From NCBI GenBank assembly GCA_963845565.1, contig CAWJSJ010000001.1:416001-480000 (forward strand): a stretch of DNA of 64,000 bases, written 5' to 3'. Every line of letters begins with the position of its first letter. Within the stretch, counting starts at the first letter, position 1. The notes beneath the pieces are model-generated. The model saw only the letters and a list, made by a program, of their open reading frames with translations. It made no database searches and was not told the DNA's origin. The stretch is from an uncultured Methylomirabilota bacterium. GTDB taxonomy: Bacteria; Methylomirabilota; Methylomirabilia; Methylomirabilales; 2-02-FULL-66-22. The position numbers and the translations under genes are program-made. Positions 45,260 through 64,000 of the stretch are shown here, one piece after another.

Positions 45260-45802
45260 ATGCCGAGTCGGTTGATCATCGTATTGAGCGTCCTGTATCC
45301 CGTGGTGGTGTACGTTGGGGGCCGGTATTTTCCGCCGCAAGCGCTCGCGCTGGTCCTTGCGCTGGTCGTCCTGACGCGCAGGACGGGTGCCTTCGGCGTC
45401 CGGATCGGCCCCTGGTCGGTGGCGTGCGGTCTGATTCTGGCCGTTCTGGCGTTCGGACTCAACGACGCGCTGCCGCTCAAGATGTATCCCGTGGCGGTGA
45501 ACGCATCCCTGCTGGCGATCTTTGCCTCCAGCCTGAGATACCCGCCCCCCATCGCCGAGCGCATCGCCCGCATCCGCGTTCCCGACCTTCCGCCGGAGGC
45601 GGTGGCGTACACGCGCAAGGTGACGCAGGCGTGGTGCGCCTTTTTCGTGGTGAATGCGTTGGTCGCCTTGTGGACCGCCACCCGGTGGCCGGTCCAGGCG
45701 TGGTTCTACTACAACGGGATCATCGCCTATCTCCTGGTCGGGGTCATGTTCGGCGCTGAGTGGCTGGTGCGGCGACGCGTGCTGGCGGGGTACCATTGGT
45801 GA
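45260..45802 (+). CDS. COG4648-type membrane protein (as found in aryl-polyene-like clusters)
   Basis: YPV.VN..F..SL...P.AERIAR..YTRKVT.AW..FF..N..W..YNG.IAY motif. Confidence 0.85.
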   Translation: MPSRLIIVLSVLYPVVVYVGGRYFPPQALALVLALVVLTRRTGAFGVRIGPWSVACGLILAVLAFGLNDALPLKMYPVAVNASLLAIFASSLRYPPPIAERIARIRVPDLPPEAVAYTRKVTQAWCAFFVVNALVALWTATRWPVQAWFYYNGIIAYLLVGVMFGAEWLVRRRVLAGYHW

Positions 45803-45856
45803 GGAGGGCGAAGGCATCGCGGCAGTCGCAGATCCAAGGGGAACACGGGGCATGCG

Positions 45857-47302
45857 ATGAGAGTGCTCCTGCTACGACCGGATCCCGGTAACGAGCGCTT
45901 CGGCCTGGGGCCGTTTTTTCGGGTGGAGCCGCTCGGCCTGGAGTACATCGGGGCGGCGCTCCGCGCTTGCGGCCACGAGCCGTGGATCGCGGATCTGCGG
46001 TTTCGTCCGGGCCTGGACACCTGGATCCGGCGCACCCGGCCCCAGTTGGTCGGCATCTCCTGCCTGCATTCACTCGAATACGACCGAGTGCGCGCGACCG
46101 CCCGGGCGGTCCGGCGGGCGGCGCCGGAGGCGTTCGTTCTGGTCGGGGGGCATGCGGCGGCGGCATTCCCGCGGCCGCTCGAATGCGACGAGGTTGATGC
46201 CATCTGCCTTGACGACGGCGAGGAGATCGTGCCGGCCCTGGTCGAGGCGATCGAGCGCGGTGCCCCCCTCGACATGCTGCCGGGGCTCCGACTGCGAATG
46301 GGCGGCGAGTGGCTCGCCACGCCTCCCCGGCCACGGCAGACCGGTCTGGATCTTGTACCCCTCCCGGCGCGCGACCTGGTCGAGCAACACCGGAATGGCT
46401 ATCACTGCCTGCTCTTCAAGCCGATCTGGCTGGTCGAGACGGCACGTGGCTGCCCGTATCGGTGCAGCTTTTGCTCGGTCTGGCAACTCTATGATCGTGC
46501 CTACCGGGAACGGTCCGTGGCGGCGGTGGCGGAGGACTTCGCCTCCGCCGGAGACGCCGTCTTCGTTGCGGACGACCTCTTCTGGCACCATCCGGCACGG
46601 AGCCGCGAACTCGCCGAGGCGCTCCGTAAACGTGGCGTGTCGAAGCGCTGGATCCTGGTGCAGACTCGGACCGACCTCATCTCGCGCCAGACGGAACTCC
46701 TCGAGGTGTGGCGGCCTCTGGCGAAGGATTTTGACATCTTCTTCGGGTTTGAGGCGGCCAGCGACGCCGGCCTCTCCCAGGTGGACAAAGACGCAGGGGT
46801 CGGGGCAAGCCTCGAGGCGGTGCGCATCGCCCGGTCCCTGGGTTACGGGGTCAACGGGAACTTCCTGATCGATCCCGACTGGACGGAGACCCATTTCGCG
46901 GAGCTGTGGGATTTCGTGGCGCGCCACGATCTCCGCCGGGCGGGATTCACCATCCTGACGCCGCTGCCGGGCACCGAATTTTTCGATCGGCTGGCCCCGC
47001 GGCTGGCGGGGCAGCCGTGGCATGCTTACGATATGCACCATCTGCTCTGGGAGCCGCGACTCGGCGCGCGGCGTTTCTTCGAGCTGTATGCCGAAACCTG
47101 GCGGCGATCCATCCTCAACGCGTCCGGAGACAAGACGTGGCTGGACTGGGTGCGGCAGGTGCGACCAACGATGGTACCGTATCTGCTGCGCGTGCTCTGG
47201 CGCACCCAGCGGATGATGAAACCCGAGGCCTACCTCGGCGAGTACCAGGCAACGAACCGGACGTGTCCCGGGTCTTCGAGCAGCGCCGGGGTCGCATCGT
47301 AG
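45857..47302 (+). CDS. B12-binding radical SAM enzyme (HpnR-related)
   Basis: EPLGLEY, VGGHAA, RGCPYRCSFC, DPDW and TPLPGT motifs. Confidence 0.88.
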   Translation: MRVLLLRPDPGNERFGLGPFFRVEPLGLEYIGAALRACGHEPWIADLRFRPGLDTWIRRTRPQLVGISCLHSLEYDRVRATARAVRRAAPEAFVLVGGHAAAAFPRPLECDEVDAICLDDGEEIVPALVEAIERGAPLDMLPGLRLRMGGEWLATPPRPRQTGLDLVPLPARDLVEQHRNGYHCLLFKPIWLVETARGCPYRCSFCSVWQLYDRAYRERSVAAVAEDFASAGDAVFVADDLFWHHPARSRELAEALRKRGVSKRWILVQTRTDLISRQTELLEVWRPLAKDFDIFFGFEAASDAGLSQVDKDAGVGASLEAVRIARSLGYGVNGNFLIDPDWTETHFAELWDFVARHDLRRAGFTILTPLPGTEFFDRLAPRLAGQPWHAYDMHHLLWEPRLGARRFFELYAETWRRSILNASGDKTWLDWVRQVRPTMVPYLLRVLWRTQRMMKPEAYLGEYQATNRTCPGSSSSAGVAS

Positions 47303-47363
47303 CGAAATGGTGCGGTGTCGGGCCGCGACCTCAGCGGCGGGAGGTAGGCGCAGGACCGTGGCA

Positions 47364-48257
47364 ATGGAGACCGTGGTGGACACCCCGGACCGGCCGAAGC
47401 CCTTCCGACATGTGCTGGCCGCCCCCTGGTTCTATCGTCTGGGGTTCGCGGCGGCGCGCGCGGTGCCCGTTCCCGTTCTGTACGGGATTGCCGATGGCCT
47501 GGGCGTGGCCACGTATCTGACCAACGGCAGGTTGGTCGCCGCAGTGCGCGCGAACCTGACGCGCGCATTCCCCCAGGCATCCGAGCGTGAACGATCACGC
47601 CTGATACGGCGGATCCTCCGGAACTACGTGCGATACCTGGTCGATTACGGCCGTTTTCGGTGGACGCGGCGAGAGGGGTTCGAGGCGCTGATCCCTGCAC
47701 TCGAGGGCGGAGATCACCTACAGGGAGCGTTTGCCGCCGGGCGGGGCGTGATCCTGGTTACGGGGCATGTGGGCAACTGGGAATTGGGGGGGACGTTCTT
47801 CGGCCAATCCGGCGTCAAGATCCATGTGGTCACCCTGCCGGACGGGCACCGACAGATCGACGCCATTCGGGAGCGATATCGGGGGCGCCACGCGATCAGC
47901 ACGATCGTCCTCGACGGGTCGCCGTTTGCCTCGTTGGAGATGATGGCAGCGCTGAAGCGCAACGAGATGGTGGCTATGCTGGTCGACCGGTGGGGGGAAG
48001 CGGATGGGATCGAGTCGCCCTTCTTGGGCGGGACGCATCACCTTCCCCGCGGCCCCTTTGTGCTGAGCCGGGCGACCGGGGCGCCGATCCTGCCTGCCTT
48101 TGTCGTGCGCGACGGGGCCTCCTACCTGGGGATTGTGGAGCCTCCCTTTGTCGTCGAGGGGGACGACTTGGGGCCCTATGCGGCTCGCGTCAGCGGTGCG
48201 CTGGAGCGCGTCATCCGGCGCTACCCGGATCAGTGGTATAATTTCATTCCTGTGTGA
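47364..48257 (+). CDS. Lipid A/phospholipid acyltransferase (LpxL/HtrB family)
   Basis: GHVGNWE, L.DR and YPDQWYNF motifs. Confidence 0.9.
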   Translation: METVVDTPDRPKPFRHVLAAPWFYRLGFAAARAVPVPVLYGIADGLGVATYLTNGRLVAAVRANLTRAFPQASERERSRLIRRILRNYVRYLVDYGRFRWTRREGFEALIPALEGGDHLQGAFAAGRGVILVTGHVGNWELGGTFFGQSGVKIHVVTLPDGHRQIDAIRERYRGRHAISTIVLDGSPFASLEMMAALKRNEMVAMLVDRWGEADGIESPFLGGTHHLPRGPFVLSRATGAPILPAFVVRDGASYLGIVEPPFVVEGDDLGPYAARVSGALERVIRRYPDQWYNFIPV

Positions 48258-48287: not shown

Positions 48288-49817
48288 ATGCACCTGACGA
48301 CGCTGGCGGGACGGCGGATTCCCGGTATCACGCGATCGCTTCCGCGGACGGTTCGGTCGCTCTGCCCGGAGTGCCTCCAGACGATCCCGGCAGAGGAATT
48401 GGCCGAGGATGGGCGCGTAGTCATGCGGAAGGCGTGCCCGACGCACGGGCCGTTCAAGGACGTCGTGTTCTCCGACGCCGAGATGTTCCTCCGCATGGAG
48501 GCGTGGCATTTCGGAGACGGCCAGGGGTTCGCGAACCCCCAAGGAGATGCGGACGGGGAGTGTCCGCAGCGGTGCGGCATCTGCGGCTGGCACACCAGCC
48601 ACACCTCGCTGGCCAACGTGGACCTGACCTCCCGGTGCAATCTGTCCTGCCAAGTGTGCTTTGCCGACGCCAACGGGCAGGCCTATGAACTGTCGTTCGA
48701 GCAGGCCATGGACACCCTGCGCCGGCTCCGGGGACAGTGCCCGGCGCCGGCGTTCGCGGTGCAGTTTACCGGCGGGGAACCGACGCTGCATCCGCGGTTT
48801 CTCGACATCGTGGCCGGGGCGAAGGCCCTGGGGTTTTCCCACCTCCAGGTGGCCAGCAACGGGCTGAAGCTGGCGGATCCGGATTTCGCGTGCCGGGCCC
48901 GGGACGCGGGCCTGCAGTACGTGTACCTCCAAATGGACGGGACGACCGACGAGGTGTTCCTCGCGCTCCGCGGCGCGGCACTCCTCGATCGAAAGCTCGC
49001 CGTGCTGGCGTCGGCACGGAAAGCCGGCCTTCGGATCATCTTCGTTCCCACCATTGCCAAGGAGGTGAACGACCACCAGATCGGCGACCTGTTCCGACTG
49101 GCGTTCGAGCACCTGGACGTGCTCTCCGGCATCGCCTTCCAGCCGATGACCTTCACCGGCCGCGTGCCGGAAGGGGACCGGCTGCGTCTGCGCTTCACGC
49201 TCTCGGACCTGGCGCGCGAATTTGGCGAACAAACGGGAATCACGCGGCTGGACGCGGACTGGTTCCCGCTGAGCGCCGCCGTGCCCCTCATCCGGTACGC
49301 CGGGGCCCTGACCGGCACCGCGCTGGTCAACCACACGTGCCACCCGCATTGCGGTCTGATGACCCTGCTGTTCGTCGATCAGGACCGGCGGGCGGTCCCG
49401 ATCACGCGGTTCCTGGACCTCTATTCCCTCCTCACGGATCTCGACGCGTTGGCGGCAAAGACGCACCCGACGAGCATCAAGGTCCTGTCGAAGGCCCGGG
49501 CGCTCCAGGCGCTCAACCGGCACTTCCATTCCGACCGCGCCCCGGAGGGGCTGACGTTCTTGCGATTCCTCCAGACACTGGACGGATTCGGCGACAAGCG
49601 GTACTCCTGGAGCGACGCCCACCGGGGGTACACGTACAAGACCTTCTACGTGCTCGGGATGCATTTCATGGACGCCTACAATTACGATCTCGAGCGCGTT
49701 TCGCGGTGCGGGGTCCATTATTCCGCTCCCGATGGGAAGATCTATCCGTTCTGCTCGTACAATTCGGGGCCGACCTTTCGAAAGCGAGTGGAAGAGGGAG
49801 TGGGATGGGCGCGCTGA
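48288..49817 (+). CDS. Radical SAM enzyme of the tetraether lipid synthase (Tes/GDGT-MAS, MJ0619) family
   Basis: CPEC..CPTHG, CPQRCGICGWH, CNLSCQVC, VYLQMDG, FQP..FTGR, HPHCG, MHFMD.YNYD..R..RC..HY and PFCSYN motifs. Confidence 0.88.
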   Translation: MHLTTLAGRRIPGITRSLPRTVRSLCPECLQTIPAEELAEDGRVVMRKACPTHGPFKDVVFSDAEMFLRMEAWHFGDGQGFANPQGDADGECPQRCGICGWHTSHTSLANVDLTSRCNLSCQVCFADANGQAYELSFEQAMDTLRRLRGQCPAPAFAVQFTGGEPTLHPRFLDIVAGAKALGFSHLQVASNGLKLADPDFACRARDAGLQYVYLQMDGTTDEVFLALRGAALLDRKLAVLASARKAGLRIIFVPTIAKEVNDHQIGDLFRLAFEHLDVLSGIAFQPMTFTGRVPEGDRLRLRFTLSDLAREFGEQTGITRLDADWFPLSAAVPLIRYAGALTGTALVNHTCHPHCGLMTLLFVDQDRRAVPITRFLDLYSLLTDLDALAAKTHPTSIKVLSKARALQALNRHFHSDRAPEGLTFLRFLQTLDGFGDKRYSWSDAHRGYTYKTFYVLGMHFMDAYNYDLERVSRCGVHYSAPDGKIYPFCSYNSGPTFRKRVEEGVGWAR

Positions 49818-49839: not shown

Positions 49840-50562
49840 ATGAGGCTCCGCTTCGCTGCGATCGCGGCGCTGGGGTTGTCCTGGTGGACCCCTGGGGGAC
49901 CGGCGGCGGCGCCTGCCCCTGCTCCGATTGAGGGCAAGGAGCGAATCGAGGTTATCGAGCGCCTCCAGACGCAGCAGCGACAGATTACGAGTCTTCGGGC
50001 CACGGTTGTGCAGAGGAGGCGGCACCCGCTCCTGACCGCCGAGGCGGTGAGCGAGGGCACCTTGCTCTTCCAGAAACCCAACCGGGTTCGGTGGGAGGTG
50101 GACAAACCGGATCGGGCCGTCATGGTGATCGACGGGCGCTCGTTGATGACCTATCGCCCCGACAGGCAGGAGGCCGAGCGAAGGGATTTCGGGGCGGATT
50201 TCGGCGCCCGCGCGGCCGTGGAGTTTCTCGCCTCGGGAATGAGTCTTGCGGTGCCCGAACTCGAGAAGCGGTTCCAGGTGGACATGCACCGGGAGGACGG
50301 GATCTTGGTCCTCGTGCTCACGCCCCGATCCCGATGGGCGGCGAAGGCGGTCGCGTCGGTGGCGCTCTATCGGCAAGCGCAGGACGCGGTGCCCAGCCGG
50401 ATCGTGATCTCCGGCCAGCCGGGCGATCGGACGGAGATCACGCTGACCGATATCGTCATCAATCCCCCGGTTGCCGAGGACGCGTTTACCCTCCGTCTTG
50501 GGCCGGGGGTCCGGGTGACGGACATCAGCAGACCGGGAGGAGAGAAGGGCAGTGACCGTTAG
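49840..50562 (+). CDS. LolA-like periplasmic lipid/lipoprotein carrier
   Basis: Signal peptide; G.L.FQKP..VRWE..KP motif. Confidence 0.82.
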   Translation: MRLRFAAIAALGLSWWTPGGPAAAPAPAPIEGKERIEVIERLQTQQRQITSLRATVVQRRRHPLLTAEAVSEGTLLFQKPNRVRWEVDKPDRAVMVIDGRSLMTYRPDRQEAERRDFGADFGARAAVEFLASGMSLAVPELEKRFQVDMHREDGILVLVLTPRSRWAAKAVASVALYRQAQDAVPSRIVISGQPGDRTEITLTDIVINPPVAEDAFTLRLGPGVRVTDISRPGGEKGSDR

Positions 50563-51655
50563 GCCGTCCGCCACCTGCGGGGTGATCGAGCTTCCGGTGC
50601 GCCGAATCCACCTGGAATTGACGAACCGGTGCAACTTCGCCTGCGAGTTCTGCCCAGACGATCGCATGGTTCGGCCTCGCGGCGCCATGCCGCTCTCCCT
50701 GGTCGAGCGTCTGCTGGCGCAAGCCGGCCGGGACCGTGTCGCCCGGGAGGCGCACTTCCACGTCATGGGGGAACCGCTGCTCTATCCCGCGCTGACCGAC
50801 GCGGTCCGCCTTGCCCGCGGCAGCGGGCTGGAGGCGTGGCTGACCACGAACGGGAGCCTGTTGACCCCGGACCTGCTGACGGACCTCCGGGACGCCGGCC
50901 TCTCCCACCTGACTATCTCGCTGCAGACGCCCGATGGCCCCACCTTCGGCCTGCGTGGGTCCCATCGCCTCTCCTTTGCGGAGTACCAGGAGCGGATGGT
51001 TGGCGCAGTGCGCCGCTTTCTGGCGGACGAGTCGGGGATGCACCTTTCGGTCTGCTTTTTGTCCAATCCGCTGCGCCGGTTCCATGCCCCGGGCGCGGCC
51101 CGGCTGCGCGTGGCCGAGTCCGGGAAGGAGTTGCGCGCGCACATGGCGCGTTGGGTGGACGAGATCTTCGGCGGTACGGCCTTCGAGCGCCAGGTGCCGG
51201 AACTCCGCGCTCGGATCCGGAAGGCCGGCATCTTGAAGGAAGGCTGCATCCCCCTGACCGCACACCTTGACTTCCGGGTCCGCGTCCTGGGGAACTGGGC
51301 GGGGCACTTCGCAGGTCCTTTCGTTCCCGCCCGGTTCGGCTACTGCCCGGGGCTGGCCGAGCAGTTCGGGGTCCTGTGGAACGGGGACTACGTGATCTGC
51401 TGCGCGGATTACGACGGACGAACGGCCTTGGCGAACGCCTCGGAAACCTCAGTGGTGGAGTATCTGTCGCTGCCCGCGGTGCAGGAGATCGCGGGTGGCT
51501 TCCGACGGCATCGCGTCATCCACCCGCATTGCCGGCAGTGTCTCGGGGATCGGCACCCGGTGAGTTCCTTCCTGCGGCAGGCCGGATCGATCGTCTATTT
51601 CAAGGTCTACCGGAAGTTCATGAAGGATGGAGTCACAGGGCGGGGCACGGCATGA
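50552..51655 (+). CDS. Radical SAM protein with a SPASM/twitch domain
   Basis: CNFACEFC, GEPLL, C..L..QFGVLWNGDYVICC.D and C..C motifs. Confidence 0.88.
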   Translation: MTVRPSATCGVIELPVRRIHLELTNRCNFACEFCPDDRMVRPRGAMPLSLVERLLAQAGRDRVAREAHFHVMGEPLLYPALTDAVRLARGSGLEAWLTTNGSLLTPDLLTDLRDAGLSHLTISLQTPDGPTFGLRGSHRLSFAEYQERMVGAVRRFLADESGMHLSVCFLSNPLRRFHAPGAARLRVAESGKELRAHMARWVDEIFGGTAFERQVPELRARIRKAGILKEGCIPLTAHLDFRVRVLGNWAGHFAGPFVPARFGYCPGLAEQFGVLWNGDYVICCADYDGRTALANASETSVVEYLSLPAVQEIAGGFRRHRVIHPHCRQCLGDRHPVSSFLRQAGSIVYFKVYRKFMKDGVTGRGTA

Positions 51656-53007
51656 ACCTCCTGCTCATATCACCACTGACATCCAAGAGCCTGCTGGGGG
51701 CCGATTTCTATTTCCGGATGCCGACGCTGGGCCTGCTGCGGGTCGCCGGCGCGACACCGCCCGAGTGGACGGTGAGTATCCTCGACGAGAAGGCGGAGCC
51801 GATCGATTTCTCGCGCCCGGCGGACCTGGTCGGAATCACGGGGATGACCCCCGCTATCAACCGCGCGTACGAGATTGCCGATGCGTTCCGCGGCCGCGGC
51901 GTGCCCGTGGTGATGGGGGGAATCCATGTCAGCATGTTGCCGGACGAGGCGCTGGCGCATTGCGATGCCGTGGTCATCGGCGAAGCGGAAGGGCTCTGGG
52001 CGCGTCTGCTGGCGGACTTCCGGGAGGGGCGGCTGCAGCGCCGCTACCAGCACACCGCATTTCCGCCCTTGACGCGGCTCGGCAGCCCGCCGTGGCCCCT
52101 CTACGACGGGAAGCGGTACCTGCCGTTTCACTGCGTGGAGACCAGTCGGGGATGCCCGCACGGATGCGATTTCTGTTCCGTGACGAATTACTTCGGAGGA
52201 TGTTACCGCACGCGCCCGCCGGCGGAGGTGGAGGCGGAGATCCGCGGACTGCGCCCCTTCGCGGGGCGATTCACGCTGAAGAACGTCGTCTTCTTCGTGG
52301 ACGACAACATCGCGGGGGACCGCGCCCATGCGTGCGACTTGCTGACCCGGATGATTCCCTATCGGCTCAAGTGGCTTGGCCAGGCGTCGACCGGCATTGC
52401 TCGAGACGACGAGGTGCTGGACCTGTGCCGGAAGAGCGGCTGCATGGGTCTGCTGATCGGTTTCGAGACGCTGTCTCGGGAGCGGCTCAAGGCGGTGCGT
52501 AAGGGATTCAATCGCCCCGACGACTACCTGGACGCCATCCGGAAAATTCACGATTACGGGATCGGCATCAGCGGCGCGTTCGTCTTCGGTCTGGATGGCG
52601 ACGACGAAGGGGTGTTCGACCGGACCTACGAGTTCGTGCAAAAGGCGAGGCTGGAGAGCCCCTACTTGTCTATCCTTACCCCCTACCCCGGGACACGCCT
52701 ACACCGAAAACTTGCGGACGAAGGGCGCATTGTCGATTTGGACTGGTCCAATTACAACACCAACAACGTGGTGTACCGGCCCCAGGGGATGACGGCAGAG
52801 CAGTTGTTCGACGGGTATTTCCAGCTGCAGAAGGCGGTCCACACGGTGCCGGCCATCGTGCAGCGGTTCTGGGGAACCACCTCGCGGGCCAACTTCTGGC
52901 TGCCCATGAATTACGGGTTCCGTCGCTCGGTCCAGAAGCTGGCGGCGCGGTCGCGAGAGTTTCGCCCGGTCGGGTCGGGCTTTACGAACACGACGCCCGC
53001 CGCGTGA
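51652..53007 (+). CDS. B12-binding radical SAM enzyme
   Basis: GGIHVS, GEAE, RGCPHGCDFC, FVDDN, GFET and TPYPGT motifs. Confidence 0.9.
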   Translation: MNLLLISPLTSKSLLGADFYFRMPTLGLLRVAGATPPEWTVSILDEKAEPIDFSRPADLVGITGMTPAINRAYEIADAFRGRGVPVVMGGIHVSMLPDEALAHCDAVVIGEAEGLWARLLADFREGRLQRRYQHTAFPPLTRLGSPPWPLYDGKRYLPFHCVETSRGCPHGCDFCSVTNYFGGCYRTRPPAEVEAEIRGLRPFAGRFTLKNVVFFVDDNIAGDRAHACDLLTRMIPYRLKWLGQASTGIARDDEVLDLCRKSGCMGLLIGFETLSRERLKAVRKGFNRPDDYLDAIRKIHDYGIGISGAFVFGLDGDDEGVFDRTYEFVQKARLESPYLSILTPYPGTRLHRKLADEGRIVDLDWSNYNTNNVVYRPQGMTAEQLFDGYFQLQKAVHTVPAIVQRFWGTTSRANFWLPMNYGFRRSVQKLAARSREFRPVGSGFTNTTPAA

Positions 53008-54186: not shown

Positions 54187-55242
54187 ATGAGGCGTCGGGA
54201 ACGACGAGCCTGCAGATCGGCAGTGGTCCGCCGCGCATGGACGTTGGCCGCGGTGTTGCTTTTCCTAGGCGGCGCGGCATGTAGTACGACGGACAAGCGC
54301 GTCGGGCCGCAGGTGTACTCGCAGCCCCGCTACGGGATCGATCGGTTCGTCGAGGCAAAAGGCTACCGCCTCCATTACGTGGAGGCGGGTTACGGACCGC
54401 CGGTGGTGCTGATTCCGGGCGCCTTTACGACCTATCGAGCGTGGGACGGTATGCTGCCCGCCCTGTCCGTCCACCACCGGGTTCTTGCGTTCGACTACGT
54501 CGGCGTCGGGGATTCGGACCAACCGAGTGACGGGTTCGGGTATACGTTGGAGGAGCAGGCGGATGTGATGCGGGAGGCGATCGTCACTCTCGGTGTGGTC
54601 GGGACGAGGGTTATCGGTGCGTCGTACGGAGGTGCGGTGGCGTTGAATCTTGCCGCCCGGTATCCGGAACTGGTCAGCCGGGTCGTCTGCATCGAGGGCG
54701 GGGCGCTGATCGCACCCGAGGTGCTGAACTACAGTGCACTCGGACGCCTCATCGATTGGCCCGTGCTGGGGGACATCATCTGGGGGTTCATGAAGTCCGG
54801 TCTCTTCGACACGATCACGGCGCGATCGGTGATGGGGAACGCCTGGGCGGACTTGACGCCGGAAGCCCGCCGCGATGTCACCGGGGTCTTCTCGGCGAAC
54901 ATCATGACCGTGTCGCGGGCGTCGTGGATGGGAATCTACCGAGCGATCACGACTCGGATCGACTTCCTGGAGGCCCTGCAACGCACCCGAACCCCCGTGC
55001 TCTACCTGTACGGGGAGGCGTCGAAGTATCGGGCCGTGGCCGAGGCGAACGCGAGGCAGTTCTCGGAACGCCATCCGACCATCGAAGTGGTGGCGTTCCG
55101 TAACGGGATCCACGACTTGCACCTGCAGTATCCCGAAGAGATCAGCAGGCTGGCCTTGGGCTTCTTCGGGGCGGCGCCGAGCGCGCAGTTGGCCGGCGGG
55201 GGCGCGGCCAAAGCGGAGAGCGCGGCAGTCGTGGGGCCGTGA
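54187..55242 (+). CDS. Alpha/beta-hydrolase, probable lipoprotein
   Basis: Signal peptide ending GAAC; GASYGG nucleophile elbow; C-terminal His. Confidence 0.85.
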   Translation: MRRRERRACRSAVVRRAWTLAAVLLFLGGAACSTTDKRVGPQVYSQPRYGIDRFVEAKGYRLHYVEAGYGPPVVLIPGAFTTYRAWDGMLPALSVHHRVLAFDYVGVGDSDQPSDGFGYTLEEQADVMREAIVTLGVVGTRVIGASYGGAVALNLAARYPELVSRVVCIEGGALIAPEVLNYSALGRLIDWPVLGDIIWGFMKSGLFDTITARSVMGNAWADLTPEARRDVTGVFSANIMTVSRASWMGIYRAITTRIDFLEALQRTRTPVLYLYGEASKYRAVAEANARQFSERHPTIEVVAFRNGIHDLHLQYPEEISRLALGFFGAAPSAQLAGGGAAKAESAAVVGP

Positions 55243-56656: not shown

Positions 56657-57634
56657 ATGCGGTGCACAGCGAGAGCGCTTTTCCTCTGTATGGTTGTTTC
56701 GCTCTGCGTTTCGCACACCGTGGCCGCTGAAATCCTCACCAATGAGGCGGTCGTCACGATGGTCAAGGCAGGACTCGGGGACGACGTGATCGTCGGCAAG
56801 GTCCGGCTGACGCAGGGACAGTACGATCTCTCCACCAACGGCCTCCTGCGCCTCAAGGCCGACGGAGTGAGCGAAGCGGTCATCAAAGCCATGATCGAGG
56901 CGTCGGCCGGTGGGGAGGCACCCGGGCCGAAGCCGGTCCAGGCAGCGACGGCTCCCGCGGAGGCAGCGCGTCGCGAAGAGGCGGCCATCGCGCTCTACAA
57001 ACAGGGGAAGATGGCAGAGGCCGCGGCGGCGTTTGACCGGCTGATCGCCGAGAAGCCGGACGACGCCGGACTCAGGGTGTGGAAGGCCCTCACGCTGCTG
57101 GAGCAGGCGCGCGAGATCAAGGACAACAATGCGTCCGGGTACAAACCCCTGGTCATGAACGCCTATGCCATCCTTCAGCCGCTCAAGCCGAGGCTGGCGA
57201 CCAACGCGGATTGGAATTTCGCGATGGCCAAGGCCTTCTGGCTGAACGCCTCGCCCACCTGGGCGAGTCGGGCCGCGGGGAACGCACTCCGCCTGCAGGC
57301 GAATTATCCGGAAGCGCAGCTGCTCCTGGGCGACCTGGCCTATGACAGCGAGGTGAGCTCGCTGAACCAGGCCCCCGGCAGTCCGGGGCGGGAGGCCACA
57401 CTGCGGTGGGCGGGCGCCGCGCCTCGGAGGGAAATCGACAAGGCGCTGGCCATGCCGGACCTGCCCCCATCACTCCGCGCGGAGGCGTTTTACAAGCTCG
57501 GTGTGATCTCGGCGGAATTGCAAGGCAAGTCAGAGACGGCGCGTGAATACTGGGAGCGCGCGGTGGCCGCCGATCCCGCCTGCCGATACGGCCGCATGGC
57601 CCAACGCCGTCTCCAAGCGCCGCCCGCGAAGTGA
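56657..57634 (+). CDS. Exported TPR-like protein
   Basis: Signal peptide; LTN..V..MVKAGL..D.I motif; helical repeats. Confidence 0.7.
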   Translation: MRCTARALFLCMVVSLCVSHTVAAEILTNEAVVTMVKAGLGDDVIVGKVRLTQGQYDLSTNGLLRLKADGVSEAVIKAMIEASAGGEAPGPKPVQAATAPAEAARREEAAIALYKQGKMAEAAAAFDRLIAEKPDDAGLRVWKALTLLEQAREIKDNNASGYKPLVMNAYAILQPLKPRLATNADWNFAMAKAFWLNASPTWASRAAGNALRLQANYPEAQLLLGDLAYDSEVSSLNQAPGSPGREATLRWAGAAPRREIDKALAMPDLPPSLRAEAFYKLGVISAELQGKSETAREYWERAVAADPACRYGRMAQRRLQAPPAK

Positions 57635-58557
57635 TGCACGCGACAGCAAGCGGGGGCCGGACTGCCGCCTCCTGCGGACGGACGCGCGCGGCCCCGCCCT
57701 TTGTCGCCGGCCCTCCTGTTCCGGTGGCGAGTGTGCGAGACCTGAATGCCCTGACGGTGGACCTGGAAGATTGGTACCACGTGTGCGGGGTGAAATCGGT
57801 TGAGGGCCCTCGGCAGTGGGGGGCTTTGGAAAGCCGCGTCGTCCGGAGCACCGAACGCCTTCTTTCGCTCCTGCAGTCGCACGGCATCCGGGCCACGTTC
57901 TTTGTGCTGGGGTATGTCGCCGAGCGGGAGCCGGGCCTGGTGCGTGCCATCGCCCGAGAAGGGCACGAGGTGGGCCTCCACGGGCACGTCCACCGCAGGA
58001 TCTTCGAGATGTCGCCCGCCGAGTTCGACGAGGATCTGGTTCGCGCCCAGGCGGCCGTCTCGGCGGCCGCGGGCACCGACGTGGTCGGCTACCGGGCGCC
58101 GGAGTGGTCTATGCGTCCGCATACCCTGTGGGCCTTGTCGATTCTGAGAAAGCGAGGAATTCTCTACGATTCCAGCATGGTGCCCCTCACCCGGATGGGG
58201 GATCGATCCTTTCCCCGTGTTCCCTGCCGCTTCGACACTCCGAATGGAGAGATCGTGGAGTTTCCGTTGACAACAGTTCGATGTTTCGGCGAAAGTATCC
58301 CCTTCTCGGGGGGGTTGCCTCTGAGGTTGACTCCCTACTTCTTCATCGTGTCGCAGATCCGTCGCCTGAACGCGGCCGGGAAACCCGCACTGGTATATGT
58401 CCATCCCTGGGAATTCGACCTCGAACAGCCGAGGATCGGGCTGCCGTGGAGCCGCAGGTTCATGCACGATTTCAACCTGCCGGCGACCCCACGGAAACTC
58501 TCGGGCCTTCTGACACATTTCCGGTTCGCTCCGATCCGGGAGGTGCTGGTCACTTAA
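57631..58557 (+). CDS. Polysaccharide deacetylase-family protein (start may be 57733)
   Basis: TVDLEDWYH, ATFFVLG, HG..H, GYRAP and Y.HPWEFD motifs. Confidence 0.88.
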   Translation: MMHATASGGRTAASCGRTRAAPPFVAGPPVPVASVRDLNALTVDLEDWYHVCGVKSVEGPRQWGALESRVVRSTERLLSLLQSHGIRATFFVLGYVAEREPGLVRAIAREGHEVGLHGHVHRRIFEMSPAEFDEDLVRAQAAVSAAAGTDVVGYRAPEWSMRPHTLWALSILRKRGILYDSSMVPLTRMGDRSFPRVPCRFDTPNGEIVEFPLTTVRCFGESIPFSGGLPLRLTPYFFIVSQIRRLNAAGKPALVYVHPWEFDLEQPRIGLPWSRRFMHDFNLPATPRKLSGLLTHFRFAPIREVLVT

Positions 58558-58779
58558 TTGTGGGATCGACAGTACGCCTCATCACTCGGGATCTTCGTTG
58601 GCGTCGCCGTCGTTTGCCTCATCGGGATCATGTCCCTGCTGCTCTGGCTCGGCTGGGCCGGCGTCGCGGGACTCTCGGCGATCGCGGGCGGATTCTTGGC
58701 CTGGTTCTACTGGGCCCCTCGTCCGGACCTGACCCCGAGGGGCGACGAGCCCGAACCGGATGGGACGCAGCATGACTAG
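58558..58779 (+). CDS. Small two-TM membrane protein
   Basis: Hydrophobic ORF that fills the gap and overlaps the next start. Confidence 0.5.
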   Translation: MWDRQYASSLGIFVGVAVVCLIGIMSLLLWLGWAGVAGLSAIAGGFLAWFYWAPRPDLTPRGDEPEPDGTQHD

Positions 58780-59995
58780 TCGCGTCGCCATCACGGGGAT
58801 GGGGATCGTGACGTGCTACGGCATCGGCACGTCCGCGACCTGGGGAAAGATCCTCGCCGGGGAACCCGGCATCCGCCCCATCACTCTCTTTGACACGTCC
58901 GATTATCGCGTGACGCGGGCGGGGGAGTTTACCGATCTTCCGGTCGCGCCGTGGCGGCGATTCCGTGCCACGCGGATGGACCGCGCCTCCAACCTGTTGC
59001 ATCATGCGCTCGCCGGCGCACTGGGCGGGTTGGACATGCCGGCGACCGCCACGGTGCCCGTGCCGCCCCTGGTGGTCCTCGGCACCACACTCGGGGGCAT
59101 GACCTCGGGGGAGCAATACCATGGGATGTATCTCCGGAAAGGGCCGGCCCTGGCGCGACCTTCCCTGGTGGTGGGGCACCTCGCCCAAGCGCAGGTCCTC
59201 CAAATCATGGACGAGTTCTCGCTTCCGGGCGTGCCGCGCATCTTTTTGAACGCGTGCACGTCAAGCGCCAACGCCATCGGCCATGCGTTCCGCGCGGTTC
59301 GCGGCGGGCGGGCCCAGGTCGCGCTGTGCGGAGGGTATGACGCGCTGTGCGTTTTCGGGTTCACGGGGTTCCACTCGCTCCAGGCGCTGACGACCGACGT
59401 GTGCCGGCCGTTCGATCGGAGTCGCGACGGGCTTTCGATCGGCGAAGGGGCCGGGATCCTCCTCCTCGAGTCGTGGGACCGCGCCCAGGCGCGTGGGGCG
59501 CCGATCCTCGGAGAGATCGTCGGGTACGGGGAATCGACCGATGCGTTCCACATGACGCGCCCGGAACCCGAGGGTTGCATGGCGGCGCTGGCGATCCAGG
59601 CCGCCGTCCGGGACGCCGGGATCAGCGCCGCGGAGGTGGATTACGTGAACGCGCACGGAACCGGGACACCGTTCAACGACCGGTCGGAGACGGCCGCCCT
59701 GGTGGCCGCCATGGGGGAGCGTGCCTATACGATTCCGGTGAGCTCCACCAAGGCGATGATTGGCCATCTGCTGGGCGGGGCCGGTGCCGCGGAAGCGATT
59801 CTCACCGTGTTGGCCCTCAGGGACGCATGGCTTCCGCCGAATGGGAATTACCAGACGCCCGATCCCGACTGCGCCCTACGGATCGTCCGGCAGGCGGAAC
59901 GGCCGACACGCATGCGGTATGCGCTCTCCAATTCCTTCGGCTTCGGCGGAGCCAACGCCACCCTGGCGTTCCGAAGTGTGCGGGCGGACTCCTGA
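58772..59995 (+). CDS. Beta-ketoacyl-ACP synthase (FabF-like, intact Cys-His-His triad)
   Basis: NACTSS, NAHGTGT, GHLLG and NSFGFGG motifs. Confidence 0.92.
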   Translation: MTSRVAITGMGIVTCYGIGTSATWGKILAGEPGIRPITLFDTSDYRVTRAGEFTDLPVAPWRRFRATRMDRASNLLHHALAGALGGLDMPATATVPVPPLVVLGTTLGGMTSGEQYHGMYLRKGPALARPSLVVGHLAQAQVLQIMDEFSLPGVPRIFLNACTSSANAIGHAFRAVRGGRAQVALCGGYDALCVFGFTGFHSLQALTTDVCRPFDRSRDGLSIGEGAGILLLESWDRAQARGAPILGEIVGYGESTDAFHMTRPEPEGCMAALAIQAAVRDAGISAAEVDYVNAHGTGTPFNDRSETAALVAAMGERAYTIPVSSTKAMIGHLLGGAGAAEAILTVLALRDAWLPPNGNYQTPDPDCALRIVRQAERPTRMRYALSNSFGFGGANATLAFRSVRADS

Positions 59996-61062
59996 TGGAC
60001 AGGGTCGCGATTTCGGGTATCGGCATCGTGAGCCCCGGGGCGTTCGGGCGAGAGGCGTTTCTCCGGACCCTCTCGCCCGAACGCCGGACGGATCCGACCT
60101 TTCGGGTTCCCGAGTTTGCCCTCGAACACCACCTGGACAACGCGCGATCGTTCCGCCGGGTTGCCGATGCGACCAAGTTCGCCCTGACCAGTATGGCTCT
60201 GGCGATTGCCGATGCAGGATTCCGTGCCGCCGACTTCGGGGGCGAGCGAGCGGGTCTCGTGGTCGGGGTCAGCCACGGCGCGGTGACCTACGCCGTGGAG
60301 TTTCACCGGACCCTCTTGCGGGAAGGGGCGCTCTCGGCGTCGCCCCTCTATTTTTCCGAATCGGTTCCGAATGCACCGGCAGGAAACGGAGCCATCGCGT
60401 TCCAGATCCGCGGCCCGGTGCACACACTGATCGGGGACGAACCGGTCGGGACGCAAGCCATCGATCTTGCCTCCACCCTGCTCTACGACGGGTGCGTGGA
60501 TCGCTGCGTGGTGGCCGGAACCGAGGAATGGAACGGGGTGGTGGCGCACGCGTACGCCCAGATGGACCACGTCCATCGGAACGGCCGGGACCGCGGGGAC
60601 ACCCCTGCGCTGAGTGACGGGGCCGCGGCGTTGGTGCTCGAGCTGGAAAGTACGGTCGCGAGGCGGAAGGCGACGCCTCATGCGGTCATCGGCGGATGGC
60701 ACCTTGGGCGGTGCCTGGCGGGCTCGCTCGAGGACGCGATGGCGGATACCATCCGCGTGGCGTTCGGACCCACCGGGCATCCTGCCGCGGAGGCGGATCA
60801 TGTCGTGCCTCCCACGGGTCGGCACCGTCGTGCCGCGATGCGCGGCGTGGGTGCGGCGCGCGGGACTGCAGCAGGACAGCCGACGTGGCTTGACCTCCTT
60901 CCCGTCCTGGGCAACCCGATGGGGGCCTCCAATCTGTTCCAGGTCGCGATCTCGGCGGCCCTGATCTCGAACGGAACGCTGGCAGGGCCGGGCCTGGTCG
61001 TGTCCACGGGTATCCAGCGTACGCTGGCGGCCGTCGTGATTTCGGCAGCGGAACGGGAGTGA
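59995..61062 (+). CDS. Non-catalytic KS-like subunit (chain-length-factor-like)
   Basis: SP..F..SVPN..G....F.IRGP motif; Cys position reads E (GDEPVG); no HGTGT. Confidence 0.8.
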   Translation: MDRVAISGIGIVSPGAFGREAFLRTLSPERRTDPTFRVPEFALEHHLDNARSFRRVADATKFALTSMALAIADAGFRAADFGGERAGLVVGVSHGAVTYAVEFHRTLLREGALSASPLYFSESVPNAPAGNGAIAFQIRGPVHTLIGDEPVGTQAIDLASTLLYDGCVDRCVVAGTEEWNGVVAHAYAQMDHVHRNGRDRGDTPALSDGAAALVLELESTVARRKATPHAVIGGWHLGRCLAGSLEDAMADTIRVAFGPTGHPAAEADHVVPPTGRHRRAAMRGVGAARGTAAGQPTWLDLLPVLGNPMGASNLFQVAISAALISNGTLAGPGLVVSTGIQRTLAAVVISAAERE

Positions 61063-62195
61063 CCGGGGTGGACGATCTGCGTTGCGCGCTGCGCGAGATC
61101 CACGGTGGGGCGGTCGCAAAGCGTCTTCTGGCAGATATTCTGTGCTGGGCCGAGCGCGACGGCGTGTTGGAGCGCATGCGCAGGCTGTCCCATTTTACCG
61201 AGGCGGACCTCTGCCGCGCCCTGGATTCCGATCTCGGGTACGCGCTCGGTGCCGGGAATCGGCGACGCATGATCCGGCTCCTCCTCTGCTTGCTTGGCGA
61301 GTGTGGGCGCCTGCGGGAGGCGGATGGAACGTGGGCGTGGCGCTCGGACGGTTCGACCCACGGCCTGGAGAGCGACGAGGAGTCACCTCCGGCGGAGGGA
61401 CGATCGGCCACGGACGCGCAATACGGCTTTTTCCATCGGTGTCTGGAATCCGTCCCGACCTACCTGCGCGGCGGGAGCTCTTCCGTACTCTTTGACCAGA
61501 CGCACGCGGCGGTCTGGGACAGTTTCCTGGGCTGCGCGGAATTCCAGACCTGTCGCTCGCTGCTTCTCGAATTGATGGGAATCGAACGGCACCCCTCCTG
61601 TCGCTTCCTGGATCTGTGCCACGGCCCCGGCTGGGGGATGGAGGCGGCGATCTCCCGGTTTCCGGCGATCCGGGTCACCGCCGTGGACTTCACGGATGTC
61701 TTTCGGGACACGGCGAGAGCGCGGGCGGAGCGCGCGCAGGCCAGCAACCGGCAGCGGGGCCACATGGCTGTTCCGATCACCTGGGTGGGCCCCGAGCAAT
61801 GGCACGGGTTTGGGGACCCCCTCCCGTTTCCCGACTGTGCGTTCGATGCCGTCTTCTTCACCTGCGGGGACCCGTATATTCCTCGCCCCTTGCGGGGGGC
61901 CGTGTATCGAGAACTCGGCCGACTTCTCGCGCCGGGCGGACGGCTGGGAGTCCTGACACGGTCCTGTCCGGATCGAGGCGCCCGACACGTCCCGTCGTTT
62001 TGGCTTCGCGTCTCCGCGCTGGCGCACGATTTCGCCGAGAGCGTGTGCGCAGGATGGGAGGGTTTTGCTGAGGCTGACGACACGATCCGATTGCTGGTGA
62101 GCGCCGGCTTTCAGGGGAGCATCAACGCATCAGGGGACATGAGTCTGCTGGATTCCTCGCTGTGGATCCTCAGGAAGCGGTGCGGCGATGGCTGA
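61059..62195 (+). CDS. Class I SAM-dependent methyltransferase
   Basis: FLDLCHGPG, AVDF, LPFPD..FDAV and L.PGG.L motifs. Confidence 0.8.
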   Translation: MTGVDDLRCALREIHGGAVAKRLLADILCWAERDGVLERMRRLSHFTEADLCRALDSDLGYALGAGNRRRMIRLLLCLLGECGRLREADGTWAWRSDGSTHGLESDEESPPAEGRSATDAQYGFFHRCLESVPTYLRGGSSSVLFDQTHAAVWDSFLGCAEFQTCRSLLLELMGIERHPSCRFLDLCHGPGWGMEAAISRFPAIRVTAVDFTDVFRDTARARAERAQASNRQRGHMAVPITWVGPEQWHGFGDPLPFPDCAFDAVFFTCGDPYIPRPLRGAVYRELGRLLAPGGRLGVLTRSCPDRGARHVPSFWLRVSALAHDFAESVCAGWEGFAEADDTIRLLVSAGFQGSINASGDMSLLDSSLWILRKRCGDG

Positions 62196-63393
62196 GACCG
62201 TGGTCGTTACGGGACTCGGCGTGGTGTCCCCGCTCAATCCCGAGGGTGACCTGGAACGATTCTGGGCATCGTTGTGCGCCGGAGATACGGCACTGTGTGA
62301 GGTGCATTCCTTCGACACCTCGCGGTATCCGTACCACGTAGCGGCGGAGATCGATCGGGATCGGTTGGGAGTCTCGGGTGCGACGGAGGCGCCAGCGTGG
62401 CGTATGGCCGAAGTGGCTTGCGATCAAGCGCTCACCCATGCCGCCGCCGCCCGGTGCACGTTCGAGCCCCGGCGCGCCGGCATCGTGGTCGGGACCGTGC
62501 TCGGTGGAACGACGACGGGCGAGCGGTACATTCGGGCTGAGAACCGAGAACGAGGACGTGATGTCGCGGTGCTGACACAGTATCCGCTCCGGGCCGTGGC
62601 CGCCCTCTTGGCGCGGAAGACGGGGTATGCCGGTTGCGCGCTGACCGTGTCGACCGCCTGTGCGTCGGGGACCGATGCCATCGGGCTGGCCTCCCGCCGG
62701 ATCGCGTCGGGCAGGGCGGACCTGATGATCGCAGGTGGCGTGGATGCCGTCTGCGAGCTTTCGTTTTCCGGTTTCGCCGCCTTGAAGGCTCTGACGACGG
62801 ACAAGGTGCGCCCCTTTTCGCGGAATCGGACGGGCTTGGCGCTCGGAGAGGGCGCGGCGTTCTTGGTCTTGGAGGCGGCGCACGCGGCGGCGCGCCGTGG
62901 GGCGTCGGTGCTCGGTGAGATCGCCGGCTACGCCTCCCGCGCCGACGCGGTCCATCTGACTGCGCCCCATCGTGGGGGGCGGGGGCTAGCCGCCGCGGCT
63001 GCGGCCGCCCTCCGCGACGGGGGGTGCCGCCCGGACGCGATCGACTATGTGAGTGCCCACGGGACGGGGACCCCCTATAACGATGCGATGGAAACGATGG
63101 CCCTCAAGACCGTCCTGGGGACCCACGCGCACCGGGTCGCAATCAGCTCGATCAAGGGAGCCCTCGGTCATGCATTCGGAGCCGCCGGGGCGATCGAAGC
63201 GGTGACGTGTCTCCTGGCGATGCGCGACGGCATCATCCCGCCGACCATCAATCTCGAGGAACCCGACCCGGCGTGCGATCTGGACTTCGTGCCGAACCGG
63301 GCGCGACGGACGACGGTGCGCGCCGCGCTGTCGCTCTCCGCGGGGTTCGGCGGGCAGAACGCCGTGCTGGCGATCCGGGCCCCCGCGCCATGA
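62188..63393 (+). CDS. Beta-ketoacyl-ACP synthase (FabF-like, intact Cys-His-His triad)
   Basis: TACASG, SAHGTGT, GHAFG and GFGGQN motifs. Confidence 0.92.
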   Translation: MAETVVVTGLGVVSPLNPEGDLERFWASLCAGDTALCEVHSFDTSRYPYHVAAEIDRDRLGVSGATEAPAWRMAEVACDQALTHAAAARCTFEPRRAGIVVGTVLGGTTTGERYIRAENRERGRDVAVLTQYPLRAVAALLARKTGYAGCALTVSTACASGTDAIGLASRRIASGRADLMIAGGVDAVCELSFSGFAALKALTTDKVRPFSRNRTGLALGEGAAFLVLEAAHAAARRGASVLGEIAGYASRADAVHLTAPHRGGRGLAAAAAAALRDGGCRPDAIDYVSAHGTGTPYNDAMETMALKTVLGTHAHRVAISSIKGALGHAFGAAGAIEAVTCLLAMRDGIIPPTINLEEPDPACDLDFVPNRARRTTVRAALSLSAGFGGQNAVLAIRAPAP

Positions 63394-64000
63394 GCCACCC
63401 CGTTCGACTCGTCAGTATCGGAATCGCCCGAACCGATGGCGACGGGGCGGGGGTGAACGGAGGGCTCGCCGGTCGGCTCTCGGGGGCCCTGTCGGCGGTC
63501 TCGCGGGACGGCGCGCAGGTCCGCCTGGCGCACGGCATCGAGGAGGCGACGTTGATCGCCGCCTACGACGCGCTGCGTCTCGCCGGTGTGCGCACGCCGC
63601 TGGGGACCGCGGAGATCGGCGTTGCGCTGGGCGTGGAGGAGGGGATCGACGGCATCAAGGCCCAGTACTACCGGGAGGTCGTGAAAGACGGCCCGCTGGG
63701 CGCAAGCCCGATCGTTTTCCCCCTGACGACTCCCAACACCGTCGCCGCGCGTATCTCCATCGCCTTCGATCTGCGCGGAGAGATTGTTACCATGTGCGGC
63801 GGCACCCTGTCCGGGGCGCATGCCCTCGGGCGTGCGATGGAGGCGCTGCGCGAGGGGCGGTCGTCGGCCATGCTCGCCGGCGGTACGACGTCCGTGGAGC
63901 GGGAGTTCCTCGACGCGCTCTCCCTCGTCGGCGGGTTCGAGGGTGGGGCGCCGGGCTGCGCTGCGTGCCTGTTTCTCCTCCGGGCCCCGGGATCGGCCGA
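63390..64000 (+). CDS. Second non-catalytic KS-like subunit (runs off the window)
   Basis: Own translation: SPIVFPLTTPNTVAARISIAFDLRGEIVTMCGGTLSG, with T at the ACxSG Cys position. Confidence 0.75.
   Translation, partial: MSHPVRLVSIGIARTDGDGAGVNGGLAGRLSGALSAVSRDGAQVRLAHGIEEATLIAAYDALRLAGVRTPLGTAEIGVALGVEEGIDGIKAQYYREVVKDGPLGASPIVFPLTTPNTVAARISIAFDLRGEIVTMCGGTLSGAHALGRAMEALREGRSSAMLAGGTTSVEREFLDALSLVGGFEGGAPGCAACLFLLRAPGSA

Follow-up and report, generated by a model that had tools for sequence, protein, structure and literature searches.

A tetraether-synthase homologue within an anammox-type lipid gene cluster of a Methylomirabilota bacterium

The gene cluster kuste3335-3352 of the anammox bacterium Kuenenia has been discussed as a ladderane candidate since Rattray 2009 (PMC2649909). 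A methyltransferase of the Kuste3347 type, AmxMT1 of Brocadia fulgida (PDB 8HD2), binds an anammox acyl carrier protein (ACP) in a pull-down (PMC9821293). 'Ladderane' clusters outside anammox bacteria are routinely flagged and left unexplained (PMC9902471, PMC11968836). Aryl-polyene clusters rely on anchoring and export genes of the kinds found in the locus treated here (PMC8253772). A further relevant system is the tetraether synthase (Tes, or GDGT-MAS) of M. jannaschii (7TOL/7TOM), which binds E. coli phospholipids and is indifferent to their head groups (PMC9433317). Here we describe a 28-gene operon of an uncultured Methylomirabilota bacterium (genome G000), followed from a stretch of 64,000 nucleotides (the window, G000:C1:416001-480000) into the sequence beyond it. 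By its sequence, the chassis of this operon is an orthologue of the anammox cluster and so belongs to a family already known; what is new is the Tes homologue inside it.

Orthology with the anammox cluster

Seventeen genes of the operon, from the polysaccharide deacetylase to the glycosyltransferase of family GT2, follow the published Kuenenia labels from kuste3351 to kuste3335 one by one. The common order is deacetylase-like protein, small open reading frame (ORF), FabF, non-canonical FabF, methyltransferase, FabF, unknown, phenylacetyl-CoA ligase, two radical S-adenosylmethionine (SAM) enzymes, FabG, ACP, FabZ, methyltransferase, membrane protein, phytoene desaturase-like protein and glycosyltransferase. 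The comparison with Kuenenia is by published labels, and synteny at the sequence level was tested on the anammox genomes G082, G182 and G285. There, 22 (G182), 21 (G285) and 21 (G082) of the 28 genes have matches in the same order, at 25-60% identity (28-59% in G182). When 401 Planctomycetota genomes were searched with the AmxMT1-like methyltransferase of the operon (MT1), three matched, and hydrazine synthase (PF18582) scored over its cut-off in all three. The two cluster types have in common the enzyme of model TIGR04072, active and non-catalytic FabF paralogues, and the Kuste3347/AmxMT1-type methyltransferase. MT1 matches AmxMT1 at E 3e-59 over 340 residues, with the Tyr and the His-Glu dyad kept; it differs in having a non-anammox host and, as predicted partner, the cluster's own ACP. 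Relative to Kuenenia, the operon adds Tes, a COG4648 protein, two B12-binding radical SAM enzymes (A and C below) and a hydrolase.

The anammox clusters themselves extend upstream of the published range, starting at an acyltransferase and going on with a LolA-like carrier, a VTT-domain-type protein, a radical SAM/SPASM enzyme, a B12 enzyme and an ATP-grasp ligase (L158:17045-L159:4697 in G182, L155:18486-L156:6149 in G285, L161:18346-L162:6194 in G082). These genes are not in the candidate-gene tables of the kuste cluster in the accessible parts of PMC2649909 and PMC4790861. The VTT-type protein is a 210-residue membrane protein, the domain itself being seen in the G041 counterpart. Between deacetylase and first ketosynthase (KS1), where a 66-residue gene has been listed as a putative ACP (PMC4790861), the anammox ORF of 66 residues (L159:7696-7896) is hydrophobic and has no Pfam match; from its sequence it looks like a small membrane protein.

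The Tes homologue, its cassette and its descent

The Tes homologue passes the curated model NF045702 (474.9 bits, cut-off 450) and aligns over its full length to GDGT-MAS (7TOL, E 8.5e-109), with 36-37% identity. A structural model built from a 30-sequence alignment (predicted local distance difference test, pLDDT, 82.9) found 7TOM in Foldseek at E 1.6e-50 and a template-modelling (TM) score of 0.85, the next match having a TM score of 0.34; a single-sequence fold (pLDDT 35.8) was set aside. The protein has the rubredoxin site (C26/C29/C50/H53), the N-cluster (C92/C96/C99/H102), the radical SAM cysteines (C117/C121/C124) and the C-terminal cysteines C355, C474 and C489. M458 and Y478 are the equivalents of Met439 and Tyr459 of GDGT-MAS. 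The three C-cluster cysteines were assigned by conservation and the other metal ligands from PMC9433317. The window protein has all these motifs, with the Met and Tyr equivalents, and 25 of 25 relatives linked to the cassette share them. The enzyme that an earlier note on this DNA had called Tes-like is thus a genuine member of the family, sharing with the M. jannaschii enzyme the family cut-off, the fold, the four metal-site motifs and the Met439/Tyr459 equivalents. It differs in being bacterial, in standing within an operon for ketosynthases with chain-length-factor-like partners (KS/CLF), acylation and export, and in belonging to a clade apart from acidobacterial Tes. Because it is embedded in such an operon, archaeol is an unlikely substrate for it. 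G000 has no second Tes match, and the nearest relatives of the protein in records titled Methylomirabilota are 81-82% identical.

A quick tree of 80 Tes loci puts 27 of them in one clade with the window protein (Shimodaira-Hasegawa-like approximate likelihood-ratio test, SH-aLRT, 100), and the acidobacterial proteins lie outside this clade and lack the cassette; one row, L078, was dropped as a split match, and L041 and L048 carry no 'module' label although both are inside the clade. An LpxL-family acyltransferase stands directly upstream of Tes in 25 of the 27 clade loci and a LolA-like gene downstream in 24, as against none and one of the 53 other loci, most of which are acidobacterial. A metagenome scan from the acyltransferase side, in which seven of the ten query rows came from Tes-bearing clusters, gave 12 orthologues of at least 40% identity among the best 80 of 579 matches. 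Eleven of these are followed by Tes and the remaining one (GC content 0.35) directly by LolA; the other 68 of those best 80 loci show no Tes match above 46 bits. More distant acyltransferase relatives (L216, L239, L244, L250, L252, L258, L264) occur in other ACP clusters rich in B12 radical SAM enzymes and lacking Tes, so the family is wide. Three acidobacterial loci (L069, L077, L095) have a second, distant Tes-like paralogue of about 30% identity 2 kb upstream of Tes.

The operon is not a chance array, because its gene order recurs in G009, in genus relatives and in other phyla. G009 has the full set of 28 genes in the same order, with frameshifts, and there are partial copies in G004, G006, G016 and G019; near-complete copies are found in other phyla, those of G041, G048 and G616 with Tes. 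The radical SAM and KS genes are conserved together in the genus, in Nitrospirota and in anammox bacteria; the earlier note had said that a lack of such co-conservation would refute its view. Of 251 genomes from the bacterium's own phylum, 5 have MT1, each together with Tes, and 7 have Tes. The cassette is found there in the own genus only; G017, whose Tes is 47% identical, has none of it on its short contig. Of 251 genomes in a Nitrospirota class sample, 9 have MT1, 8 have Tes over cut-off and 7 have both; minus three genomes first found via Tes, the figures are 6, 5 and 4 of 248. Among the discordant genomes, contig ends interrupt the locus in G660 and G804, and the 40 kb covered in G793 show only a six-gene block from KS to ligase. 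As kin are not independent, these counts show a pattern and not a probability.

In the Deferrimicrobium-like genomes G042, G043 and G050, an opposite-strand block carrying BtrH, ABC-transporter and KAS III genes (in G050 also a type III polyketide synthase with a YceI protein) stands in place of the KS block. What is kept there comprises acyltransferase, Tes, LolA, ATP-grasp ligase, deacetylase, MT1, B12 enzyme A, ACP, a second methyltransferase (MT2), the MMPL exporter and GT2. The enzyme A copies are 72-74% identical; the enzyme is absent from the Nitrospirota and anammox versions and from the G004 locus. As the KS block is swapped while the head-group and export genes and Tes stay, Tes is tied to the module for acylation, head group and export rather than to chain assembly. 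The tie between this Tes clade and the cassette holds in Methylomirabilota, Nitrospirota and Deferrimicrobium-like genomes.

A few loci of this group deserve mention in their own right. The hybrid loci are L148-L150 (G050), L136-L138 (G042) and L139-L141 (G043); in them the Tes module flanks the opposite-strand block, which also has a strong TIGR04072 enzyme (655 bits in G050). L198:6282-15126 is a compact version with acyltransferase, Tes, ATP-grasp ligase, enzyme A, deacetylase, small ORF, MT1, MT2 and GT2, and there is no KS match in the 15 kb covered. On a planctomycete-titled contig (L048:877-4155), a Nitrospirota-type cassette Tes lies beside opposite-strand TPR and lipoprotein-like genes that resemble ones of the anammox cluster. 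L041, from a record titled Bacteroidales, has a near-identical cluster (Tes 95%) lacking enzyme A and with many frameshifts; the label may be a binning or labelling error, or the cluster a recent transfer.

The anammox-class clusters lack Tes. Their acyltransferase is directly followed by the LolA-like gene at six of six junctions (G082, G182, G285, G482, G507, G512), three further clusters not covering this junction; hydrazine synthase was checked in three of the six genomes, with which the other three, drawn from the same class sample, cluster in the tree. No Tes over cut-off was found in 131 anammox-class genomes, nine of which have MT1. Weak matches to the Tes model (at most 200 bits, cut-off 450) in 22 of the 131, none of them an MT1 carrier, were rejected. 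So were BLAST 'Tes' matches of about 28% in G182 and G082 that overlap SPASM genes; at E 1e-15 the three anammox genomes have no match.

When the KS1 and KS2 trees are rooted on each other, the Methylomirabilota copies branch first and the anammox copies fall among the Nitrospirota ones (support 95 for the KS2 half, 56-73 for the KS1 half). A tree of ten genes from 20 clusters (fast search, LG+G4, several rows with only 5-8 of the 10 genes, and leaving out G793, G484 and the Deferrimicrobium-like genomes) places the eight anammox-class copies as one clade (99.9) inside the eight Nitrospirota copies (steps 88-98), seven of which have Tes. An approximately unbiased (AU) test rejects monophyly of the Nitrospirota copies (p 0.0125), the group having been named after the KS trees were seen. 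Since anammox copies lacking Tes are nested among Nitrospirota copies bearing it, loss of Tes in anammox bacteria is likely. The simplest reading of these trees would be that the cluster came to anammox bacteria from a Nitrospirota-like donor and that Tes was lost on their stem.

Gene content and surroundings

The operon begins at window position 45260 and ends at G000:C1:491781, ten genes beyond the window; positions past 64000 are window coordinates counted on. It comprises 30,522 bases with a GC content of 0.67 (genome, 0.66), and seven of its genes encode radical SAM enzymes, four B12-binding, two of the SPASM type and one Tes. The earlier note had described 18 tightly coupled, co-oriented genes running past the window, and this description held well: within the first 18 genes, 11 of 17 junctions overlap or abut (gap of at most 1 nt), and no gap is wider than about 60 nt. 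Profile scans and motifs recovered every gene type that it listed, including five radical SAM enzymes, two KS and two CLF-like subunits, and the ACP, FabG, FabZ and MMPL genes that it proposed to look for downstream are all in the ten-gene extension. Its word 'undescribed' must be given up for the chassis, in view of the orthology with kuste3335-3352 and the pass of TIGR04072. The genes are as follows; three start codons of the gene calls were adjusted by one codon or frame.

45260..45802, +, COG4648/ApeG-like membrane protein of 180 residues; hydrophobic segments; kept in G004, G006, G009 and G019
45857..47302, +, B12-binding radical SAM enzyme A, HpnR-like; Pfam B12-binding and Radical_SAM; TIGR04367 232 bits, cut-off 650
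47364..48257, +, LpxL-family acyltransferase, directly 5' of Tes; PF03279 E 7e-37; H135 motif
48288..49817, +, tetraether-synthase (Tes/GDGT-MAS) homologue of 509 residues
49840..50562, +, LolA-like periplasmic carrier; PF03548 E 2e-18; TIGR00547 87 bits and flexirubin LolA2 69 bits, both below cut-off
50552..51655, +, radical SAM/SPASM enzyme A; 42-48% identity to anammox and Nitrospirota copies
51652..53007, +, B12-binding radical SAM enzyme B; 58-60% identity to anammox copies, among the best conserved genes
53004..54185, +, ATP-grasp carboxylate-amine ligase; PF15632 E 1e-9; in all three cluster types
54187..55242, +, alpha/beta hydrolase; PF00561 E 3e-21; N-terminal hydrophobic stretch ending in Cys, possibly a lipoprotein
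55265..56620, +, B12-binding radical SAM enzyme C; paralogue of enzyme B, 47% identity
56657..57634, +, TPR protein; signal-peptide-like N-terminus
57631..58557, +, polysaccharide deacetylase (DUF3473), positional counterpart of kuste3351; PF01522, PF11959; TIGR03006 262 bits, cut-off 276
58558..58779, +, hydrophobic ORF of 73 residues in the position of kuste3350
58760..59995, +, ketosynthase KS1; Cys-His-His intact (C166/H299/H336)
59995..61062, +, CLF-like subunit 1; Glu at the catalytic Cys position
61059..62195, +, AmxMT1-like SAM methyltransferase MT1; Y273, H323 and E327 correspond to the proposed catalytic residues
62188..63393, +, ketosynthase KS2; Cys-His-His intact (C158/H291/H328)
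63390..64358, +, CLF-like subunit 2 (the window ends at 64000); Thr at the catalytic Cys position
64352-65668, +, PaaK/FlxY-like ligase
65665-66735, +, SPASM enzyme B
66746-68110, +, B12 enzyme D; passes TIGR04072 (396 bits, cut-off 360)
68196-68924, +, FabG
69173-69430, +, ACP
69435-69860, +, FabZ
69857-70786, +, methyltransferase 2 (MT2)
70786-73296, +, MMPL exporter
73293-74738, +, CrtI-like flavoenzyme
74735-75781, +, GT2 glycosyltransferase

The motif CxxxCxxC is present in all seven radical SAM enzymes. Each of the two active KS is followed by a non-catalytic CLF-like partner, and the cluster has a single ACP. From its sequence, enzyme A is likely to be a C-methylase. No FabI-type enoyl reductase is apparent in the cluster beyond the single FabG-like short-chain dehydrogenase/reductase. 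The COG4648-like protein has no Pfam or NCBIfam match; its label comes from an ESM Atlas feature score of 0.93 to COG4648 clusters, which is a lead only, and the gene is seen only in genus-level relatives. PDB searches with B12 enzyme B, CLF1, KS1, ACP, FabZ and the CrtI-like protein gave generic relatives only, ordinary FabF ranking first for KS1, and an ESM Atlas search with SPASM enzyme A gave only generic radical SAM/SPASM clusters.

A promoter scan upstream of the operon found no sigma-70-type site, and its three terminator-like hits are all intragenic; no tRNA genes were found in the window. Just upstream, on the same strand, lie a MarR-GNAT fusion and an EamA transporter (window 43014-44988), which among the loci tested stand beside the cluster only in G009. 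On the other side, 280 bases past GT2 and again on the same strand, an 88-residue 2[4Fe-4S] ferredoxin (L001:16061-16327) is encoded, as it is downstream in G009; it is possibly an electron donor for the radical SAM enzymes. Elsewhere in G000, a DUF2229 protein of the PlsA/Ger type lies about 100 kb upstream (G000:C1 around 360767-361423, L193) and appears split over two reading frames. The genome has three more KS/FabG/FabZ clusters (C2:2592943-2601451, C2:1663697-1673915, C2:1253563-1257332), of which one contains a PaaK-like ligase and one an LpxL-like acyltransferase. A search of G000 for pmoA, made with no positive control, gave no match.

What the operon may make

Our preferred reading, to which we give a little less than an even chance, is that the operon is a Tes-bearing version of the kuste3335-3352 type, and that it would make an exported amino-sugar glycolipid with methyl-branched, ACP-built chains that Tes links tail to tail. 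What was observed for it are gene content, motifs, orthology, order and co-occurrence, and each chemical step is read from family labels. In step 1 the PaaK/FlxY-like ligase would load a starter acid, and in step 2 the two KS/CLF pairs, with FabG and FabZ and on one ACP, would extend two kinds of chain. Such pairing has a parallel in anammox Cluster I, where a KS and a dead KS form a KS/CLF-like heterodimer (bioRxiv 10.64898/2026.05.19.726425). As there is no FabI, the saturation state would be set by the CrtI-like flavoenzyme, which may be a saturase. In step 3 the AmxMT1-like enzyme would add alpha-methyl branches during elongation, and methylation or cyclisation of unactivated carbons would fall to the four B12 and two SPASM enzymes. 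GT2, the deacetylase and the ATP-grasp ligase could build an amino-sugar head group with an amide-linked part, to be acylated from ACP by the LpxL-like enzyme. Tes would then couple two terminal methyl carbons to give a macrocycle or a membrane-spanning dimer, and the product would reach the outer envelope by way of MMPL and the LolA-like carrier. On this scheme, an un-coupled congener would be expected in anammox bacteria. Of the earlier note's view, a dedicated pathway on an aryl-polyene-like chassis for anchoring and export is supported by the recurrence of the cluster in the genus and in other phyla, and its cross-linked, methylated, membrane-spanning product stays at the level of a suggestion.

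Several observations weigh against the coupled glycolipid. KS/CLF systems with FabG and FabZ and lacking an enoyl reductase normally yield conjugated polyenes, and a starter of the PaaK/FlxY type suggests an aryl-capped chain. Neither a polyene nor an aryl cap offers a saturated terminal methyl, so step 2 or a second alkyl chain would have to supply one; the two KS/CLF pairs would allow such a second, alkyl-ended chain. The solved Xenorhabdus aryl-polyene lipid reportedly has a second, conjugated fatty chain on an amino-sugar scaffold. Since the anammox version runs without Tes, the enzyme must be dispensable for a product of some kind. The head-group chemistry rests on family labels below curated cut-offs, and profile scans found no ether-forming gene among the cluster proteins. 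G000 gave no CobS match, so the host would need to import cobalamin. RNA data speak weakly for the reading: in four runs from three studies, contigs cover 22, 30, 29 and 29 of 30 operon bins at a likeness of at least 85%, this coverage being of contigs only, without a silent-region control and with DNA carry-over possible. PMC8941075 and PMC11868695 treat the activity of Tes homologues from bacteria as unconfirmed. Finally, Kuenenia gene subsets gave no new fatty acids in E. coli (Javidpour 2016, PMC4790861). Most of those proteins were insoluble and the two radical SAM proteins undetected, and the CrtI-like counterpart had no phytoene desaturase activity (PMC4790861).

The same polyene and aryl features lead to another reading, in which an anaerobe makes an aryl-polyene/flexirubin-like pigment lipid, the radical SAM enzymes tailor ring and chain, and Tes makes some other C-C bond, via a ring methyl or within one chain. 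We consider this unlikely, if worth keeping in sight. The likeness to aryl-polyene (ApeA-R) and flexirubin clusters is broad: in common are the COG4648 protein (the lead mentioned above), LolA-like carrier, RND/MMPL exporter, acyltransferase, glycosyltransferase, KS with CLF-like partners, FabG, dehydratase, ACP, adenosine monophosphate (AMP) ligase and the lack of an enoyl reductase from the cluster. Genes of the ApeG/L/M type are thus present, the ligase scores best with FlxY and has PaaK structures as its best PDB matches, and FabG and LolA match FlxB and flexirubin LolA2. All three flexirubin models nevertheless stay below their cut-offs (396/520, 251/340 and 69/125 bits), the ligase lying below the cut-offs of both PaaK- and FlxY-type models. 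ApeA-R clusters have two ACPs and ApeN (DUF3261), whereas the cluster proteins include one PP-binding match and none to DUF3261, an ammonia-lyase or a DarB-type KAS III. The operon also adds the seven radical SAM enzymes, the ATP-grasp ligase and the AmxMT1-like methyltransferase. The single aromatic lyase of the genome sits on another contig and carries the Ser-His motif of histidine ammonia-lyases. The Tes motifs are moreover invariant, including the Tyr that adjoins the terminal carbon in GDGT-MAS.

Tes might instead be a general synthase of membrane-spanning lipids from ordinary phospholipids, of the branched glycerol dialkyl glycerol tetraether (brGDGT) or diabolic-acid type, whose link with the cluster is incidental. 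The head-group indifference of GDGT-MAS towards E. coli phospholipids (PMC9433317), the lack of another Tes in G000 and the upstream DUF2229 protein, which could make ether bonds, would suit it. The acyltransferase-Tes-LolA order, kept across three phyla and almost never missing from the clade, and the position of acidobacterial Tes, suspected brGDGT makers, outside the clade and without the cassette make it improbable. Synthesis of ladderane or other cyclobutane lipids outside anammox bacteria has in its favour the orthology with the published candidate cluster, the pass of TIGR04072 and the ACP pull-down by AmxMT1 (PMC9821293). The earlier note's comparison with ladderane-type clusters stood as to likeness and proved to be more than the analogy it had drawn, being orthology with the anammox candidate. 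The product is another matter: Desulfotalea psychrophila has a syntenic cluster and had no ladderanes (PMC2649909), and recent work favours a separate anammox Cluster I, kuste3603-3608 (bioRxiv 10.64898/2026.05.19.726425, PMC10139942). Hydrazine synthase (PF18582) has no match in G000, while it is over cut-off in G082, G182 and G285. The glycosyltransferase, deacetylase, MMPL and LolA genes also point to an exported glycolipid, whereas the described ladderane lipids are glycerol phospholipids (bioRxiv 10.64898/2026.05.19.726425, PMC12758564). We therefore regard ladderanes as very improbable here. Least probable of all, to our mind, is that the cluster acylates or tailors hopanoids to an extended or lipid-linked form. 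A squalene-hopene cyclase is over cut-off in G000, and HpnR and HpnN are the best models for enzyme A and MMPL. Both matches are far below cut-off (TIGR04367 232/650, HpnN 240/752), shc is on a separate contig, and neither the Nitrospirota and anammox versions nor the G004 locus has enzyme A.

To return to the coupled glycolipid, a search for papers linking Tes to a ketosynthase, aryl-polyene or ladderane-type cluster found none, and none gave a characterised product for this gene combination, in line with the earlier note; subscription journals were thinly covered. The supplements of PMC8941075 and PMC11214058, with Tes homologue lists and gene-neighbourhood figures, may hold members of the clade. 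A bolder view, which we put forward as rather unlikely, would have a distinct bacterial Tes clade recruited into a type II polyketide/fatty-acid glycolipid pathway, welding two multiply methylated chains into a membrane-spanning or macrocyclic lipid of the outer envelope. This would be a new lipid class and a possible source of the orphan over-branched membrane-spanning lipids of anoxic settings. The operon would then represent the ancestral form of the kuste3335-3352 cluster, which anammox bacteria would have taken from a Nitrospirota-like donor while losing Tes.

In sum, this Tes clade comes with its likely substrate pathway attached, which opens a direct test of bacterial Tes function. Nature appears to have provided a one-gene control as well, in anammox clusters where the acyltransferase adjoins LolA and Nitrospirota clusters where Tes lies between them. 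The larger of the anammox 'ladderane candidate' clusters is longer than published, is shared almost whole with non-anammox phyla and is equipped for glycolipid export, which argues against its being ladderane-specific machinery. Lipid chemists may thus be pointed to an unrecognised glycolipid in existing anammox enrichments.

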